From assembly GCF_003018255.1 (NCBI RefSeq), contig NZ_CP027440.1: a DNA stretch of 64,000 bases; one strand, 5' to 3'. Each line of letters starts with the position of its first letter. Position 1 is the first letter of the stretch. Positions 2,537-10,187 of this stretch are shown here, piece by piece. The notes beneath the pieces were generated by a model. It ran no database searches. It had not been told where the DNA came from and saw nothing but the letters and a program-made list of their open reading frames with translations. Source of the stretch: Escherichia coli (GTDB lineage Bacteria; Pseudomonadota; Gammaproteobacteria; Enterobacterales; Enterobacteriaceae). Position numbers and translations under genes: made by a program.

Positions 2537-3391
2537 ATGGATGCTCTTAGCCGTTTGTTGATGCTTAACGCTCCACAAGGAACGATCGATAAGAATTGCG
2601 TGTTAGGAAGTGACTGGCAACTTCCACATGGTGCCGGGGAATTGTCGGTTATTCGTTGGCATGCGTTAACGCAAGGAGCGGCGAAGCTGGAAATGCCGAC
2701 GGGAGAGATTTTTAGATTACGCCCGGGAAATGTGGTCCTGCTACCACAAAATTCAGCTCATCGCCTGAGTCATGTCGATAATGAATCGACCTGTATTGTC
2801 TGTGGCACTCTTCGGCTGCAACATTCGGCGCGTTATTTTTTAACATCTTTGCCGGAAACGCTGTTTGTAGCACCAGTGAACCATAGCGTGGAATATAACT
2901 GGCTGAGGGAGGCGATCCCGTTTTTACAACAGGAATCCAGATCGGCAATGCCGGGAGTGGATGCTCTGTGTAGCCAGATCTGCGCTACATTCTTTACCCT
3001 CGCGGTGCGTGAGTGGATTGCACAGGTTAATACAGAGAAAAACATTCTCAGTTTGCTTCTGCATCCACGTCTTGGTGCGGTAATACAGCAAATGCTGGAA
3101 ATGCCAGGACACGCCTGGACCGTCGAATCGCTGGCCAGCATCGCCCACATGTCCCGGGCAAGTTTTGCCCAGCTTTTCCGTGATGTTTCCGGAACCACGC
3201 CGCTGGCTGTATTAACAAAGTTGCGTCTACAAATAGCGGCCCAGATGTTTTCCCGGGAAATGCTCCCTGTTGTGGTGATCGCTGAGTCAGTAGGCTATGC
3301 CAGTGAATCATCTTTTCACAAGGCGTTTGTCCGCGAGTTTGGTTGTACTCCGGGAGAATATCGGGAAAGGGTGAGACAGCTTGCACCCTGA
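2537..3391 (+). CDS. rclR: AraC-family transcriptional activator (redox-sensing), divergent from rclA
   Basis: ORF 2486..3391; ATG at 2537 preceded by AGGAG at 2526-2530; C-terminal AraC-type HTH; 284 aa. Confidence 0.85.
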   Translation: MDALSRLLMLNAPQGTIDKNCVLGSDWQLPHGAGELSVIRWHALTQGAAKLEMPTGEIFRLRPGNVVLLPQNSAHRLSHVDNESTCIVCGTLRLQHSARYFLTSLPETLFVAPVNHSVEYNWLREAIPFLQQESRSAMPGVDALCSQICATFFTLAVREWIAQVNTEKNILSLLLHPRLGAVIQQMLEMPGHAWTVESLASIAHMSRASFAQLFRDVSGTTPLAVLTKLRLQIAAQMFSREMLPVVVIAESVGYASESSFHKAFVREFGCTPGEYRERVRQLAP

Positions 3392-3918
3392 ATAAAACCG
3401 CCAGAAATCAGGGCAAAGATAATCCGCATTCCGGGAGTTGTGAGCCTTTCAACTATTTCTATTTCCAACGGTGGTTTTGGGCTTTATATATTTTTTTTGA
3501 TGGACTCTAGCTCAGTTTTTAAATAAAAACGCAAACTAAATTGCTTTAATTAAATAAAATGCCGACTATTACTTGATACGTAATTATTGTTGGTGATTTT
3601 GTTTGTACACTATCAGTGTATATCTCAATAACCCCTGAATAAGTAGCACTGAATAGGTATAAGGGATGTAGCCTTTTTAAATGGATTTCTTATGCCAAAA
3701 ATGATCGTCGATTTCCCTATAAAATGTGAGCGATGCCGAAAGAAATAAAATTAGTTATTGCATTTGAAGTTTGGATGAAAGATTATCATTTGTCATACAA
3801 ATGAGGGGTGGTATGTTGCTAGCCAATTAAAAAAGAACGCCATATTTATTGATGATTGATCCCCCGGAAGGGGGGAACCATCGGGCATAAATGGGCATGA
3901 AGTAATGGAGTATTAGTT

Positions 3919-4638
3919 GTGAATGTCAATTTCTTTGTCACCTGTATTGGTGACGCCCTGAAATCAAGAATGGCACGAGACTCCGTGCTGCTACTGGAAA
4001 AACTCGGCTGTCGCGTAAATTTCCCGGAGAAACAGGGATGCTGCGGTCAGCCTGCGATCAATAGTGGTTATATCAAAGAAGCGATTCCAGGGATGAAAAA
4101 TCTGATCGCCGCACTGGAGGATAACGACGATCCCATTATTTCACCGGCTGGCTCTTGCACCTATGCCGTAAAAAGTTACCCGACGTATCTGGCGGATGAA
4201 CCTGAATGGGCATCACGTGCCAAAAAGGTTGCCGCGCGTATGCAGGATCTCACCTCTTTTATTGTTAATAAATTAGGGGTAGTCGATGTAGGTGCCAGTT
4301 TGCAAGGGAGAGCGGTGTATCACCCATCTTGTAGCCTGGCCCGTAAGCTGGGGGTGAAGGACGAGCCACTTACGTTACTGAAAAATGTGCGTGGACTGGA
4401 GTTGTTGACCTTTGCTGAACAGGATACCTGCTGCGGATTTGGCGGCACGTTCTCGGTCAAAATGGCCGAAATATCCGGCGAGATGGTGAAAGAAAAGGTT
4501 GCGCACCTGATGGAAGTCCGCCCTGAGTATTTAATAGGTGCTGACGTGAGTTGCCTGCTGAACATCAGTGGGCGATTACAACGGGAAGGGCAGAAAGTCA
4601 AAGTGATGCATATTGCTGAAGTGCTGATGAGCCGCTGA
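3919..4638 (+). CDS. ykgE: cysteine-rich (CCG) domain protein, LutA-like subunit
   Basis: 239-aa ORF with GTG start; repeated CxxCC/CCG motifs; first gene of ykgEFG. Confidence 0.85.
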   Translation: MNVNFFVTCIGDALKSRMARDSVLLLEKLGCRVNFPEKQGCCGQPAINSGYIKEAIPGMKNLIAALEDNDDPIISPAGSCTYAVKSYPTYLADEPEWASRAKKVAARMQDLTSFIVNKLGVVDVGASLQGRAVYHPSCSLARKLGVKDEPLTLLKNVRGLELLTFAEQDTCCGFGGTFSVKMAEISGEMVKEKVAHLMEVRPEYLIGADVSCLLNISGRLQREGQKVKVMHIAEVLMSR

Positions 4639-4648
4639 GGATATAAAG

Positions 4649-6076
4649 ATGTCGATCAAAACCAGTAATACAGATTTTAAGACACGCATCCGTCAGCAAA
4701 TTGAAGATCCGATCATGCGCAAAGCGGTGGCAAACGCGCAGCAGCGTATTGGGGCAAATCGGCAAAAAATGGTCGATGAATTGGGGCACTGGGAGGAGTG
4801 GCGCGATCGGGCCGCCCAGATACGTGATCATGTTCTGAGTAATCTCGACGCTTATCTGTACCAGCTCTCAGAAAAAGTGACGCAAAACGGCGGTCACGTC
4901 TATTTTGCAAAAACCAAAGAAGACGCTACCCGCTACATTTTACAGGTTGCCCAACGCAAAAATGCCCGGAAGGTGGTGAAATCTAAATCGATGGTGACCG
5001 AAGAGATTGGTGTCAATCATGTGTTGCAGGATGCTGGCATTCAGGTGATTGAAACCGATCTGGGTGAATACATTCTCCAGCTGGATCAAGATCCGCCCTC
5101 TCATGTTGTGGTCCCGGCAATTCATAAAGATCGCCATCAGATCCGTCGAGTGCTACACGAACGTCTGGGCTATGAGGGGCCGGAAACGCCTGAAGCGATG
5201 ACCTTATTCATTCGGCAAAAAATCCGCGAAGATTTCCTCAGTGCTGAAATAGGTATTACCGGCTGTAATTTCGCGGTGGCAGAGACCGGTTCGGTATGCC
5301 TGGTGACCAATGAAGGTAATGCGCGAATGTGTACCACGCTGCCTAAAACGCATATTGCAGTGATGGGAATGGAGCGTATTGCCCCCACGTTTGCCGAGGT
5401 AGATGTATTGATCACCATGCTGGCGCGCAGTGCCGTTGGTGCACGTTTGACGGGATACAACACCTGGTTGACAGGACCGCGCGAAGCGGGGCACGTTGAT
5501 GGTCCTGAAGAGTTTCATCTGGTTATTGTCGATAACGGGCGTTCTGAGGTGCTGGCCTCTGAATTTCGGGATGTGCTGCGCTGTATTCGTTGCGGGGCTT
5601 GTATGAATACTTGTCCGGCATATCGCCATATTGGCGGTCATGGATATGGCTCTATTTATCCAGGGCCAATTGGTGCGGTGATTTCCCCGTTACTTGGCGG
5701 CTATAAAGATTTTAAAGATTTACCCTACGCCTGCTCTTTATGCACCGCTTGTGACAGCGTGTGTCCGGTGCGTATTCCGCTGTCAAAACTGATTTTGCGT
5801 CATCGTCGGGTGATGGCTGAAAAAGGGATCACCGCAAAAGCAGAGCAACGGGCGATAAAAATGTTCGCTTATGCCAATAGTCATCCAGGATTGTGGAAAG
5901 TCGGGATGATGGCTGGTGCTCATGCGGCAAGCTGGTTTATCAATGGCGGCAAAACACCACTCAAATTTGGCGCGATTAGCGACTGGATGGAAGCACGCGA
6001 TCTTCCTGAAGCTGACGGAGAGAGTTTCCGTAGTTGGTTTAAGAAACATCAGGCGCAGGAGAATAAGAATGGATAA
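4649..6076 (+). CDS. ykgF: iron-sulfur protein with 4Fe-4S ferredoxin motifs, LutB-like subunit
   Basis: 475-aa ORF; CxxCxxCxxxCP motifs (CIRCGACMNTCP, CSLCTACDSVCP). Confidence 0.9.
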   Translation: MSIKTSNTDFKTRIRQQIEDPIMRKAVANAQQRIGANRQKMVDELGHWEEWRDRAAQIRDHVLSNLDAYLYQLSEKVTQNGGHVYFAKTKEDATRYILQVAQRKNARKVVKSKSMVTEEIGVNHVLQDAGIQVIETDLGEYILQLDQDPPSHVVVPAIHKDRHQIRRVLHERLGYEGPETPEAMTLFIRQKIREDFLSAEIGITGCNFAVAETGSVCLVTNEGNARMCTTLPKTHIAVMGMERIAPTFAEVDVLITMLARSAVGARLTGYNTWLTGPREAGHVDGPEEFHLVIVDNGRSEVLASEFRDVLRCIRCGACMNTCPAYRHIGGHGYGSIYPGPIGAVISPLLGGYKDFKDLPYACSLCTACDSVCPVRIPLSKLILRHRRVMAEKGITAKAEQRAIKMFAYANSHPGLWKVGMMAGAHAASWFINGGKTPLKFGAISDWMEARDLPEADGESFRSWFKKHQAQENKNG

Positions 6077-6764
6077 TCGGAGCGAATTTTTGAATAACGT
6101 TGCTCAGGCACTGGGTCGCCCGCTGCGACTTGAACCGCAAGCAGAAGATGCGCCGCTTAACAACTATGCTAACGAGCGGCTTACCCAACTTACCCAACAG
6201 CAGCGCTGTGACGCGTTTATCCAGTTTGCCAGCGATGTTATGTTGACGCGCTGTGAACTGACCAGCGAGGCGAAGGCGGCAGAAGCTGCAATACGTCTGT
6301 GTAAAGAGCTGGGAGATCAGTCGGTCGTGATTAGTGGTGACACGAGGCTGGAGGAATTGGGGATTAGCGAACGTTTGCAGCAGGAATGCAATGCCGTTGT
6401 TTGGGATCCGGCGAAAGGTATTGAGAACATATCACAAGCAGAGCAGGCTAAAGTGGGCGTCGTATATGCTGAATATGGTTTAACCGAATCGGGAGGCGTG
6501 GTTCTTTTTTCCGCCGCCGGGCGCGGGCGTTCATTGAGCCTGCTCCCGGAATCTTCTCTTTTTATCCTGCGTAAAAGCACAATCCTGCCGCGTGTAGCGC
6601 AACTCGCAGAAAAATTGCATCAGAAAGCGCAGGCCGGTGAACGAATGCCGTCATGTATTAACATCATCAGTGGTCCCAGTTCAACGGCGGACATTGAGCT
6701 TATCAAAGTCGTCGGGGTTCATGGTCCGGTGAAAGCGGTGTATCTGATTATTGAGGATTGCTGA
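6069..6764 (+). CDS. ykgG: LutC-like (DUF162) protein
   Basis: ORF 5916..6764; ATG at 6069 overlaps the ykgF stop by 8 nt (translational coupling), 231 aa. Confidence 0.8.
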   Translation: MDNRSEFLNNVAQALGRPLRLEPQAEDAPLNNYANERLTQLTQQQRCDAFIQFASDVMLTRCELTSEAKAAEAAIRLCKELGDQSVVISGDTRLEELGISERLQQECNAVVWDPAKGIENISQAEQAKVGVVYAEYGLTESGGVVLFSAAGRGRSLSLLPESSLFILRKSTILPRVAQLAEKLHQKAQAGERMPSCINIISGPSSTADIELIKVVGVHGPVKAVYLIIEDC

Positions 6765-6868
6765 GAGAGATATGAAGTCTGGACATAAACCTGAAGGCGG
6801 CACGAGGTTGTGAATTGCGTTAAGGACAACCTGACTTAACCCCGTTCCGTCATGGTTATGCTGCTCTT

Positions 6869-6909
6869 CTGTAAATATCCTGACATTAATAATGCCAGGA
6901 TATTTACAG
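6869..6909. terminator. perfect 14-bp-stem hairpin between convergent ykgG and ykgH (likely bidirectional terminator)
   Basis: CTGTAAATATCCTG - 13 nt loop - CAGGATATTTACAG read directly from the sequence. Confidence 0.5.
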
Positions 6910-7004
6910 TGAAAAAGACAGGAATCCATTCCTGAAGACGGGCTCCCTTCCCGGTCATTGTCACTATAGTTTTATACAGGCACTCTCTGTCAGAATGCTG
7001 TTTA

Positions 7005-7673
7005 TTACTGCCCAGAGTTTTGTGGGTATTCATCTACCATTTTTTTGACAAGGCAAAACATTACAGAAATCACAATGCTTAGAAAAAATCCCAGAGCCAG
7101 GCAAATGGCAGCAGGGTATTTATTTTTTATTTCTGGTGAGCTTATAGTGACACAGCCATCACCGTTTGGATACAGTGACCAGTTCCTGGTCAGGTATATC
7201 ATTTTTGTATAAAGCTCACTGTTAATTGCTGAAGGCGTTTGTATCTCATCGAGAACTTGCCTGCCATTATGGTATTCTGACGCATACCATTTGATGATAG
7301 ACGCCTGCACGCGAGATATTTCCGCTTCAGCAGTTGGTAAATCTCTCTTATCTCCTGACCATTCCAGCTTTATTTCTCTGTTCTTGACATCTGGGCTGGT
7401 TTGAAAAAATGTAGTAATTCGCTGAATAACATCTTCAGTCATTGTGGTCTGACAGGCAAAGTTATTATTGCTATCACAGCTAACAAGTATGCCTGGTGTT
7501 GTCTGGTTTATTTTTAGGCTGTAACTCACTTTTATATTATCTTTATTGATATACAGAAACAACAGCACCATTGCCATACAGATAGCTATAATAAAAAGGA
7601 TAACACGAATCTTTTTTTTCAGATAAAATAAAATCTCAATCAGATCGATATCCTGTTTGATTTGTTCACTCAT
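7005..7673 (-). CDS. ykgH: predicted membrane-anchored protein of unknown function
   Basis: 222-aa ORF with one N-terminal transmembrane segment (VILFIIAICMAMVLLFLYI) and a second near the C-terminus. Confidence 0.75.
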   Translation of the reverse strand: MSEQIKQDIDLIEILFYLKKKIRVILFIIAICMAMVLLFLYINKDNIKVSYSLKINQTTPGILVSCDSNNNFACQTTMTEDVIQRITTFFQTSPDVKNREIKLEWSGDKRDLPTAEAEISRVQASIIKWYASEYHNGRQVLDEIQTPSAINSELYTKMIYLTRNWSLYPNGDGCVTISSPEIKNKYPAAICLALGFFLSIVISVMFCLVKKMVDEYPQNSGQ

Positions 7674-7753
7674 AATATATTCAGAGAATAAAATCTGCCG
7701 CAGATAAATGAATTAATAGTCTGTATCAGGAATGTTCGGGTTAAATATCAGCA

Positions 7754-7816
7754 AATATCCAGCATCATGAATACTGGATATTTATAGCCTGCAGGCAGCA
7801 TACTGCTGCCTGCAGG
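7754..7816. terminator. two adjacent hairpins downstream of the autotransporter gene / upstream of ykgH
   Basis: AAATATCCAG..CTGGATATTT (7754-7784, 10-bp arms) followed by CCTGCAGGCAGCA-TAC-TGCTGCCTGCAGG (7788-7816, perfect 13-bp stem). Confidence 0.45.
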
Positions 7817-7854
7817 GGGTATAACAGTCGACAGGGGAACCGACTGCTTTATTC

Positions 7855-10179
7855 TTACCAGGTCACATTGATACCAACTACACCCTGTAGCGGATTCTCA
7901 ATGTCGTCACCTTTGGTGTAGTCAAGGCTTGCATATGCTCCCATGTTTTTGGTGATATCAGCCTGTACACCTGCACCCACGCGGAATGCTGCACCGTCAA
8001 TGCTGGCATTGACAGACTCATCACCCAGACGGACTTTGTTGCCATCAGAGAATTCGTTCAGTGCGGCTAGATTCAGATAAGGTTTAACGGTCGCGTTGCC
8101 CACAGCGAAGTCATAACCCACGCGCGTACCGGCCTCACCCAGCACAGAGTTATAGCTGTCAGAATGAACGTCCACGCCGTTGAGTTGATAATCCACACCT
8201 TCCAGAGTCAGAGCAGACAGTTTGGCATATGGCTGAATAAACAGGCCATTACCGTCTTTCCATGTGTAACCGCCTTTAACCATCGCACCAAAACCATTGG
8301 TGTTAAAGTCAGCTTTGATGGTACCGCCACCATTCATCAGGCGAACATCTGCCGTGTTGCTGTAGTGACCAAACTGTGCAGCAGTATCAATGAAGATACC
8401 GTTGTTATACTGGCGGCTCAGGTAAGCGTGGAAGCTGTAACCTTCAGTGTCACCTTTGCTCTGCATGGTACTCATGTCACCTTTCGCAGAAGACATCGCC
8501 ACACCGGCCAGCCAGCTACCATCTTCAGTTATGAAGCGGGTATCACCACCCAGCATTACACCATTTACATCCAGGTCATAGGATGCATTTCCCGCGGTGG
8601 TATGTTTCTGTTTACCGCCAAAGTACTGAATCCATACGCCGCCCTTGTCATTTTCGCTCAGACGGACAGCATCCTGACGGGCGGAGAGCGTGTCAGCCTG
8701 CAGATTAGCAACGTTAGCCGGAGCAGCTGCCATTGCCTGAATCACGGAGCTGGCGTTGGATGCTTTATGCGTGTTTTTTACGAAATAAAAGTTACCATCA
8801 GCTCCCTGTGTCAGGTCATATTGATACAGACCACCTTCCGTTGTGCCTGTGGCTTTTAGAGTGCTGTCTTTGCCGGTAGAAATAAATGCCGTTTGTTCAT
8901 TGATAAGATCCAATGAACCCGCACTGTAAACACGCAAGTCACCGCTCGCTTTTCCGCTGATATCCAGAGTGTTTTCAGAAGAGGCATCAACAATCAGAGT
9001 GCCGTTTTGAGAAACAAACGTGCCAGTATTGACTGTAGCCTTCGTGATATTTACCGTACTGTCTTTTACTGCCAGAGCATCAACAGTTGAGGAACCCGTA
9101 ACATTCCAGACAGACCCGTTTTGCAGAGATACGTTGGCATCTCCTGCCCCTGAAACTTTGCCTTTCCAGACTGAACTATCGGAAAGATTTATATCCAGAT
9201 TACTACCCGCTTTATCGCCGCTATTGAAGGTATAAGCATTACCTTCCCAGTAAGAGCGGGCAACGTTCATGTTTACATTTGTTGTGGTACCGACTGAATT
9301 CTCGCTTTCAGAAAGGGCCAGGATATCAGAGTAGATGGTTGAATCAGCAACAGACAAATTTAAATTTTGCGTTGCTGAACCTGCGCCTTGTGCCGAAGCA
9401 GAGGCATAAATTGTTTGTTTATTATTAGCCGCCCCAATTACTGAGCCATCCTTAATATTCAGGTTGACTGTATGAGTTCCCGTATTATTCCCGGCAATAA
9501 CTATTGCTTCAATCCGACCATTAATAATATTTGAGCCAGCAAGGGTAATGTTGTCGGTTGCATCACCGTTAAAACTATTCAATAAGCTACCCTTTTGAGC
9601 AAAAATTGCCGTGGAGGCGTTGCTGGAACTCTTATTACCTTGAGCATTTATGGTTGTGCCATTAAGCGTGACATTATTTCCCTGGGCCCCTTCCAGAGAT
9701 ATCCCTGTCGCACTACCTTTTTCATTTTTTGCAACGAAATTACCGCCATTAACAACAACATCGCCAGTTGAATCAATGACCATTGCAGTCCGGGCATAGG
9801 TGCCTTCACCTTGAGCTGTGATGGTGGAGCCTGTAGCATTAATCACAACATTTTTGTCACCGCTAACTTTTACACCTTTAACGAATTCTTTATCTGCCGT
9901 TGATTCAGCAGTAATATCATGACCACCAAAAGTAACATTAAGGTCTTTATCTTCCGCATTAATTGTTGCGGCTGTAATCTGTGTAGTACCACTAATAACA
10001 ACATCTTGTTCCAGAGTTGTCTTATCTTTATCCAATGTAACCGGTGTAGTTGATACCGCGTTATCAGCAGCGAATGCTGGTGCAGAAAGAGCCATAACAA
10101 TAGCTGTTGCTAATGCGCTGCGGTAAAATGCCTTACTGTTTTTCATGAAGAAATTCTCCATTCTGGTAACTAATTTCAA
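7855..10179 (-). CDS. AIDA-I-type (type Va) autotransporter adhesin, UpaB/UpaE-like
   Basis: 774-aa ORF; N-terminal signal peptide (ALATAIVMALSAPAFA), long Gly/Thr/Asn/Ser-rich repetitive passenger typical of beta-helix adhesins, C-terminal beta-barrel ending in aromatic residue (GINVTW). Start could be an internal Met (MKNSKAF). Confidence 0.8.
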   Translation of the reverse strand: MKLVTRMENFFMKNSKAFYRSALATAIVMALSAPAFAADNAVSTTPVTLDKDKTTLEQDVVISGTTQITAATINAEDKDLNVTFGGHDITAESTADKEFVKGVKVSGDKNVVINATGSTITAQGEGTYARTAMVIDSTGDVVVNGGNFVAKNEKGSATGISLEGAQGNNVTLNGTTINAQGNKSSSNASTAIFAQKGSLLNSFNGDATDNITLAGSNIINGRIEAIVIAGNNTGTHTVNLNIKDGSVIGAANNKQTIYASASAQGAGSATQNLNLSVADSTIYSDILALSESENSVGTTTNVNMNVARSYWEGNAYTFNSGDKAGSNLDINLSDSSVWKGKVSGAGDANVSLQNGSVWNVTGSSTVDALAVKDSTVNITKATVNTGTFVSQNGTLIVDASSENTLDISGKASGDLRVYSAGSLDLINEQTAFISTGKDSTLKATGTTEGGLYQYDLTQGADGNFYFVKNTHKASNASSVIQAMAAAPANVANLQADTLSARQDAVRLSENDKGGVWIQYFGGKQKHTTAGNASYDLDVNGVMLGGDTRFITEDGSWLAGVAMSSAKGDMSTMQSKGDTEGYSFHAYLSRQYNNGIFIDTAAQFGHYSNTADVRLMNGGGTIKADFNTNGFGAMVKGGYTWKDGNGLFIQPYAKLSALTLEGVDYQLNGVDVHSDSYNSVLGEAGTRVGYDFAVGNATVKPYLNLAALNEFSDGNKVRLGDESVNASIDGAAFRVGAGVQADITKNMGAYASLDYTKGDDIENPLQGVVGINVTW

Positions 10180-10187
10180 TTTCCCAC

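Follow-up and report, generated by a model that had tools for sequence, protein, structure and literature searches.

Template-switch mutations associated with quasipalindromes were reportedly described by Ripley in 1982 and, for the thyA hotspot, by Dutra and Lovett in 2006. Palindromes between bacterial genes also occur as repeat families with many copies per genome (REP/BIME, ERIC/IRU), as intrinsic terminators, in which a stem is followed by a U-rich tract, and as stable stem-loops without such a tract that protect Rho-terminated transcripts from 3' exonucleases (Dar & Sorek 2018, PMC6061677); genomic islands may be flanked by short direct repeats. We analysed a 64-kb window of Escherichia coli DNA (the window being the whole stretch of 64,000 nucleotides) in which three hairpins lie close together. 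Like REP/BIME and ERIC/IRU repeats, these hairpins are intergenic and palindromic and lie between gene ends; unlike them, they occupy one locus per genome, match no family model, lack a REP-like consensus and are without related copies. The three are probably independent, single-copy stem-loops at gene ends, and the core shared by two of them is probably coincidental and was made striking by one mutation event.

The window carries ykgE, ykgF and ykgG on the plus strand and, on the minus strand, ykgH (7005-7673), an Escherichia-restricted orphan gene of low GC content that encodes a membrane protein, and the autotransporter gene hyxB (= upaB, 7855-10179). Hairpin 1 (6869-6909), hairpin 2 (7753-7783) and hairpin 3 (7788-7816, minus strand) were confirmed where the preliminary description had placed them, and all of them folded far better than shuffled sequence (z -5.7 to -8.4). 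The gene coordinates likewise bear out that ykgH is bracketed by hairpins 1 and 2. The motif AAATATCCNG-N(5-20)-CNGGATATTT occurred exactly twice in the 64-kb window, with 0.00 occurrences expected from 100 shuffles. The core that these two hairpins had been said to share is real within the window, but it does not hold across the species, as the window's version of hairpin 2 was found in 83 of 5426 genomes.

Hairpin 1 is a 41-bp near-perfect palindrome in the spacer between the convergent genes ykgG and ykgH, about 105 nt past the ykgG stop codon, and corresponds to MG1655 324,560-324,600. The stem is perfect over 14 bp and the arms extend to 20 nt with one mismatch; as RNA it was predicted to fold at -22.2 kcal/mol on the plus strand (z -5.7) and -28.3 kcal/mol on the minus strand (z -8.4). 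It was present at one locus in 5141 of the 5426 complete E. coli genomes (95%), the "2 places" in the genome counts for hairpins 1 and 3 being the palindrome matching both strands. The 14-bp stem was invariant in six strains, among which three apical alleles were seen. The O157 hairpin is a perfect 20+1+20 palindrome and other strains are also perfect over 20+20 nt; changes at the apex touch one arm only, and strains 1532MA and 20 have lost basal pairs with no compensating change. Since the ykgG/ykgH spacer as a whole is about 97% conserved, conservation alone is no proof of selection on hairpin 1. With 19-20 bp the AT-rich stem is unusually long, and no U-tract follows it on either strand, the next sequence being UGAAAAAG on the plus strand and AAGAGCAG on the minus strand.

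The ykgH 3'UTR has an intrinsic terminator of its own at 6910-6934 on the minus strand, found both by terminator scan and by Term-seq, in which the stem CAGGAAUGGAUUCCUG (6934-6919) is followed by UCUUUUU, with the U-tract (U5) at window positions 6912-6916. The scan matched this small stem and, loosely, hairpin 2 on the minus strand, and no others. The dominant Term-seq 3' end, at MG1655 324,603 on the minus strand, has the sequence ...CCTGTCTTTTT|CACTGTAAAT, also written ...CAGGAATGGATGCCTGTCTTTTT|CACTGTAAAT (PMC7815308 supp. 1), and corresponds to window position 6912, the last U of the small stem with U5. The published end thus indicates that the ykgH 3'UTR RNA ends at a separate small stem plus U5 (6912-6934) and not at hairpin 1, which starts 2 nt beyond it. 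By RIL-seq this 3'UTR counts as a candidate Hfq-bound sRNA, though northern blotting did not confirm it (PMC5145812, PMC8175672); the long palindrome right behind its mapped 3' end may be useful to researchers working on that RNA.

Two Rho termination regions were reported for K-12 in the study that provided the Term-seq ends (PMC7815308): one at 324,578 on the minus strand (score 3.5), coinciding with the centre of hairpin 1, and one at 324,913 on the plus strand, antisense to ykgH (score 6.7, p 2e-23), both with the limited resolution of 800-nt windows. Rho-dependent termination of transcripts containing hairpin 1 is thus documented by K-12 literature data and not in the window itself. No Term-seq ends were listed at hairpin 1 on either strand, including the plus strand just downstream, or at the K-12 hairpin 2 site (PMC7815308 supp. 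1); ykgEFG and the operon ending at hairpin 2 may have been expressed at low levels under the conditions of that study. These ends therefore lend the RNA roles of hairpins 1 and 2 no direct support. The K-12 lists cover hairpins 1 and 2, hairpin 3 being part of the island that K-12 lacks.

Being stable and free of a U-tract on either strand, hairpin 1 resembles the stem-loops by which Rho-terminated transcripts are shielded from 3' exonucleases (PMC6061677), and in K-12 Rho regions are mapped nearby on both strands. It differs from them in having no steady-state 3' end reported just after it, in being long and AT-rich, and in lying directly behind the intrinsic terminator of another gene. Hairpin 1 is an old near-palindrome, present E. 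coli-wide in the gap between convergent genes. With no 3' end listed directly after it, its protective role is our proposal: it would act as a stable RNA stem-loop, at which the trimming of Rho-terminated ykgEFG transcripts (plus strand) and of read-through ykgH transcripts (minus strand) would stop and which would then protect them.

An insertion between betA and ykgH, the "UpaB cluster", has already been described (PMC4844996). In the window this 6.1-kb island (7782-13861, minus strand) comprises hyxB/upaB, hyxA, hyxR and a gene for a fimX-like recombinase. A K-12-like genome matches the window over 2999-7781 and again over 13862-16868. The 6-bp direct repeat GGATAT is found on the plus strand at 7776-7781, ending at the core/island junction 7781|7782, and at 13862-13867, at the junction between the island and the betA side, whereas the empty site has GGATAT once, the arrangement of an insertion scar. 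This maps the left end of the hyx/upaB (FimX) island precisely, to the foot of a terminator-like stem. The junction splits the right arm of hairpin 2 as CTGGATAT|TT, and island DNA provides the two outermost pairs of hairpin 2 and the whole of hairpin 3. Like genomic islands with short flanking direct repeats, the hyx/upaB island combines such a repeat with a tyrosine recombinase gene; unlike them, it has neither a tRNA target nor a long att core, and the hairpin at its junction is, except for the two outer pairs, older than the junction.

The palindromes had been suggested to be a recombination scar marking the island junction, and alignment against strains lacking the island had been proposed as a check. 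That alignment does place the junction within the right arm of hairpin 2, but the only junction signature it gives is the GGATAT repeat. The left arm, the loop and 8/10 right-arm bases are already present in island-free genomes, and recombination therefore did not create hairpin 2. Divergence between lineages is about equal for the island (96.9%) and the flanking core (97.8%), so the island-free state may be ancestral or may have arisen by deletion between the GGATAT repeats.

Hairpin 2 sits at the end of the betA unit in island-free genomes and at the end of the hyxB unit in island-bearing ones. In the window its arms form a perfect stem of 10 bp and extend to 13 nt with one mismatch, and the segment 7745-7825, which contains hairpins 2 and 3, folded with z -6.3 on the plus strand and -7.1 on the minus strand. 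The left arm varies among strains. It reads AAATATCCAG in the window and in strain 104 (NZ_CP029164.1), AAAAAGCCAG in O157, NU14, H105, HB37 and the island-free strains 20 and 1532MA, which have the same flank haplotype as the window, AAAAAGCCCG in K-12 and AAAAAACCAG in strain 61 and HS; counted as haplotypes, five besides the window's were seen, with AAAAAGCC[A/C]G or AAAAAACCAG. The AAATATCC arm was found in 83 genomes only, the other sampled haplotypes having AAAAAGCC or AAAAAACC; read on the minus strand, these form a weak stem and then a U5-U6 tract. When the junction 71-mer was searched by BLAST, it was held by 1487 genomes, with 83 records identical to the window, and a core-only 77-mer likewise returned 83 identical records. 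The AAATATCC arm is thus a derived allele, carried by about 1.5% of the 5426 genomes and confined to one small clade.

The ancestral form of hairpin 2 has, on the minus strand, an 8-bp stem CCAGUAUU/GAUGCUGG followed by CUUUUU (UUUUUU in strain 61), with a predicted fold no more stable than that of shuffled sequence (z -0.4 and +0.2). It is a weak terminator-like element ending the betA or the hyxB unit. Two clade-specific substitutions, 7756 A>T and 7758 G>T, separate the window from all seven sampled genomes outside the clade, and strain 104 matches the window. The changes are spaced 2 nt apart; the T at 7756 pairs with A7780 and the T at 7758 with A7778, and together they convert an inverted repeat that is 8/10 complementary in O157, NU14, H105 and HB37 (AAAAAGCCAG...CTGGATATTT) into a perfect one. 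The stem now has 15 pairs at -17 kcal/mol, compared with -9.1 kcal/mol for the ancestral form, a gain of about 8 kcal/mol, and the U5 run is lost to the lengthened stem.

A pre-existing imperfect inverted repeat and clustered substitutions that perfect it, each mismatch becoming the complement of the other arm, are also the marks of quasipalindrome template switching (Klaric, Perr & Lovett 2020, PMC7202029). Hairpin 2 differs from that system in being a natural polymorphism fixed in a clade and inferred by comparison, with no reporter, and its third, inner mismatch (7764/7772) was left uncorrected. Five private substitutions of the window lineage were counted in 7600-7781, at 7617, 7681 and 7686 besides 7756 and 7758; by our own arithmetic, the chance that two of five land on correcting states is about 3e-4. 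BLAST identity classes contained 0-mismatch and at least 2-mismatch records only, with no single-substitution intermediate.

The events at this locus may then be pictured as follows. Ancestrally, hairpin 2 is a weak, terminator-like stem with U5/U6 at the end of the betA unit. The island lies exactly at its foot, so that hyxB reads into hairpin 2, and the first two T's of the island supply the outer two pairs. A short template switch during replication, in the window's clade, would then have copied the right arm into the left arm, turning AAAAAGCC into AAATATCC. Because the right arm of hairpin 2 already read GGATATTT, such a switch would automatically have given an arm identical to that of hairpin 1. 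This mechanism is inferred from sequence comparison, in which two independent point mutations under selection would look alike.

If the left arm is a copy of the right arm, the likeness of hairpin 2 to hairpin 1 reduces to one 12/14 match between the right arms, CTGGATATTTATAG vs CAGGATATTTACAG, within 900 bp. This match spans core and island DNA, and island-free genomes retain CTGGATAT only. A 12/14 match is expected 0.32 times per 64 kb and about 0.01 times within 1 kb; it is mildly notable but post hoc, and pure coincidence is plausible.

The further suggestion of a small palindromic repeat family was not supported. Hairpins 1 and 3 were found at one locus each rather than in many copies per genome, the motif occurs twice in 64 kb, and the shared core is the derived allele of one clade. 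An Rfam search with E-values up to 10 gave only chance matches far below the gathering scores. BLAST of hairpin 1 against plasmids and phages revealed no mobile copy, the matches being chromosome-sized "plasmids", F-prime copies of the locus and chance fragments; at this database size BLAST is blind to isolated arms of 10-14 nt. A motif scan of a contig collection yielded, among the matches listed (at least 120), chance matches in unrelated phyla and none in Enterobacteriaceae, and is uninformative on E. coli. The conclusion that there is no repeat family is well supported but not exhaustive. An element of the IS200/IS605 type, or a MITE, with subterminal hairpins was also considered and rejected, as there is no transposase gene, the segment is single-copy and mobile plasmids and phages lack it. 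Taken alone the finding is of low significance: a possible false lead is removed, and the locus is neither a new repeat family nor a recombination site.

The segment of 870 bp between the palindromes, ykgH included, is of low GC content (31-42%). All YkgH homologues are from Escherichia, and the protein seems confined to E. coli; its one Pfam match, to the Wzz N-terminal domain, was below threshold. Apparently divergent YkgH homologues, which might have served as outgroups, were artefacts, two being contigs with bisulfite-like C>T changes (L130, L131) and two error-rich assemblies (L128, L129). Relatives with 83-87% identical YkgG have no homology past the ykgG stop and no hairpin 1, with a GC-rich terminator instead. 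Their divergence sets in directly behind that stop, which makes them useless for polarising the hairpins; by the same token the E. coli-specific segment starts at the ykgG stop codon and is not bounded by hairpin 1.

These features bear on a reading that we consider quite improbable, in which ykgH is a cassette with the hairpins as its ends, the 11-of-12 repeat GGATATTTAYAG (6898-6909 and 7776-7787) represents a duplicated target or an att-like site, and the palindromes are kin and form a two-member family. It would account for repeats flanking a low-GC segment with a single Escherichia-restricted orphan gene, for the 92% identity of the direct repeat (D15), for a 14-mer match with a local chance of only about 0.01 and for the YkgG relatives that lack both hairpin 1 and any homology past the stop, and the similar divergence of island and core would allow the island-bearing arrangement to be ancestral. 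However, in island-free genomes the second copy is no more than CTGGATAT, TTATAG being island DNA, the E. coli-specific segment begins at the ykgG stop and not at hairpin 1, and outside one clade hairpin 2 has a left arm that does not resemble hairpin 1; nor were a recombinase or transposase in the segment or further copies found. The same pair of palindromes could in principle be operators of one dimeric DNA-binding regulator of ykgH or its neighbours, given that both are palindromic with an identical half-site of 8-10 nt in the window and that one is situated upstream of ykgH. Yet the spacing between the 8-mers is unequal (17 vs 15 nt), the upstream site has no half-site in more than 98% of the genomes, hairpin 1 lies downstream of both convergent genes, and no such site was found in the literature on ykgH; with unequal spacing and no conservation, a common operator was rejected as scarcely credible. 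Coincidence between unrelated stem-loops, sharpened by a single event in hairpin 2, explains the shared core better than either.

For that event itself, it is rather unlikely that the perfect hairpin 2 arose without a template switch, either through two independent point mutations selected as a stronger insulator or terminator between hyxB and ykgH or by import of a divergent allele. The three further private substitutions nearby (7617, 7681 and 7686) do make the segment somewhat diverged, and the gain in stem energy could have been selected, but the double change abolishes the U5 tract on which a terminator depends, the identity classes contain no intermediate, and the joint probability under random substitution is low, as calculated above. 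A still broader functional reading, to which we give very little weight, treats hairpin 1 as a module coupled to the candidate sRNA from the ykgH 3'UTR and the perfecting of hairpin 2 as selected because similar stem-loops on either side insulate ykgH against the hyxB island, the core being functional convergence; hairpin 1, 2 nt behind the terminator U-tract, might then guard the terminator of the sRNA against ykgEFG transcription from the convergent side or determine 3'-end formation of the sRNA. At the other extreme, hairpin 1 may have no function and be a neutral palindrome short enough to be tolerated. This is a serious alternative, if on the whole a doubtful one: an AT-rich stem without U-tract, the lack of a mapped 3' end there in the lists of Adams et al., the uncompensated basal changes in two strains and the one-sided apical changes all agree with it, while the retention of a 41-bp near-perfect palindrome in 95% of the genomes, its perfection over 20+20 nt in O157 and others and the minus-strand Rho-region peak at its centre speak against it.

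Hairpin 3 is a 13-bp, GC-rich perfect stem with a 3-nt loop and lies 39 nt downstream of the hyxB stop codon. It was found in 1894 genomes, at one locus each, and is the island's own 3' stem-loop for hyxB. No U-tract adjoins it, the next sequence on the minus strand being CUAUAAAU; a stem followed by a U-rich tract was thus found neither here nor at hairpin 1. The idea that the hairpins are terminators was accordingly right in kind, in that ancestral hairpin 2 is terminator-like and hairpin 3 lies just past the hyxB stop, but wrong in detail, the mapped ykgH RNA end being at the separate stem and not at hairpin 1. Like intrinsic terminators, the small stem with U5 at 6912-6934 is proven by a Term-seq end at its last U, ancestral hairpin 2 has its 8-bp stem with U5/U6, and hairpin 3 is a GC-rich stem close to a stop codon; unlike them, hairpins 1 and 3 have no U-tract, and hairpin 2 of the window's clade has lost its U5 run.

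Within 65 bp, the perfecting of a quasipalindrome, a loop inversion and a palindrome deletion can be seen, a clean natural example, in E. coli populations, of palindrome-driven mutation. The latter two concern hairpin 3, which adjoins hairpin 2, and are the other classic palindrome mutations. In genomes of the strain 61 type (about 398) the hairpin 3 loop is inverted from TAC to GTA, and in E. coli HS hairpin 3 has been deleted between GCCTGCAGG direct repeats.

The GC-rich hairpin 3 (7788-7816), located in island DNA 3' of the hyxB stop codon, was found in two altered forms. In about 398 genomes of the strain 61 type, the loop was inverted, reading GTA in place of TAC, and in E. coli HS the entire hairpin was deleted between GCCTGCAGG direct repeats.

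Three independent IS1 insertions were identified in or beside hairpin 2 (7753-7783), at sites equivalent to 7695-7760 of the window. In MS21-1 the element was inserted inside the A-rich left arm of the hairpin, after AAAAAGCC (contig L139, about 1551-1572), and in HB37 it lay within the A-run of the same arm (contig L127, about 940-1000). The third insertion, in AMSCJX03 (contig L002, 3249-4000), was about 55 bp from the hairpin. Neighbouring DNA including ykgH or ykgEFGH was missing from both HB37 and AMSCJX03. The hairpin 2 region looks like a local hotspot for IS1. In strain KKo009 (NZ_CP091673.1), the closest relative of the window with 99.9% identity, the IS5-like element ISKpn26 was inserted within the 6000-9000 region.

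The ykgH gene (7005-7673, minus strand) was frequently damaged: a stop interrupted its reading frame in both O157 strain 121 and strain 61, 1532MA and MS21-1 carried truncated forms of 501 nt, and strain 20 had lost most of the gene. Its 3'UTR (6912-7004, minus strand) contains an abundant RNA 3' end in K-12, with a Term-seq score of up to 126,276 (PMC7815308), and was a candidate sRNA in RIL-seq that went undetected with two northern probes (PMC5145812, PMC8175672).

Two Logan contigs (L130 and L131, from SRR27475577 and SRR27475578) were considered as a YkgH locus with 79% identity and rejected, since they consisted of K-12 sequence in which almost every C was read as T. They probably derive from bisulfite-type libraries that were assembled like normal DNA. 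When the core shared by hairpins 1 and 2 was searched as two arms with a variable spacer, the matches listed included seven contigs of the Candidatus Kaiserbacteria MAG JACROD01. The matching spans on these contigs were 26 nt long and identical, and most of them lay no more than about 100 nt from where the contig stops. These copies are an unrelated repeat that apparently breaks the assembly of that MAG.

Within the island, the stretch between the hyxR-like and fimX-like genes contained a palindrome with 19-nt arms (95%) as well as two 33-nt inverted repeats (82%) separated by 240 bp (11921-11959 and 12196-12228); presumably these are the known FimX-invertible hyxR promoter switch. In O157-type genomes, hyxR contained an internal stop and hyxB lacked about 1 kb (window 8034-9070), leaving a pseudogene and a separate beta-barrel ORF. 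Where the island ends on the betA side, about 0.75 kb (12850-13600) was very AT-rich (26-29% GC) and contained no ORF of at least 100 aa.
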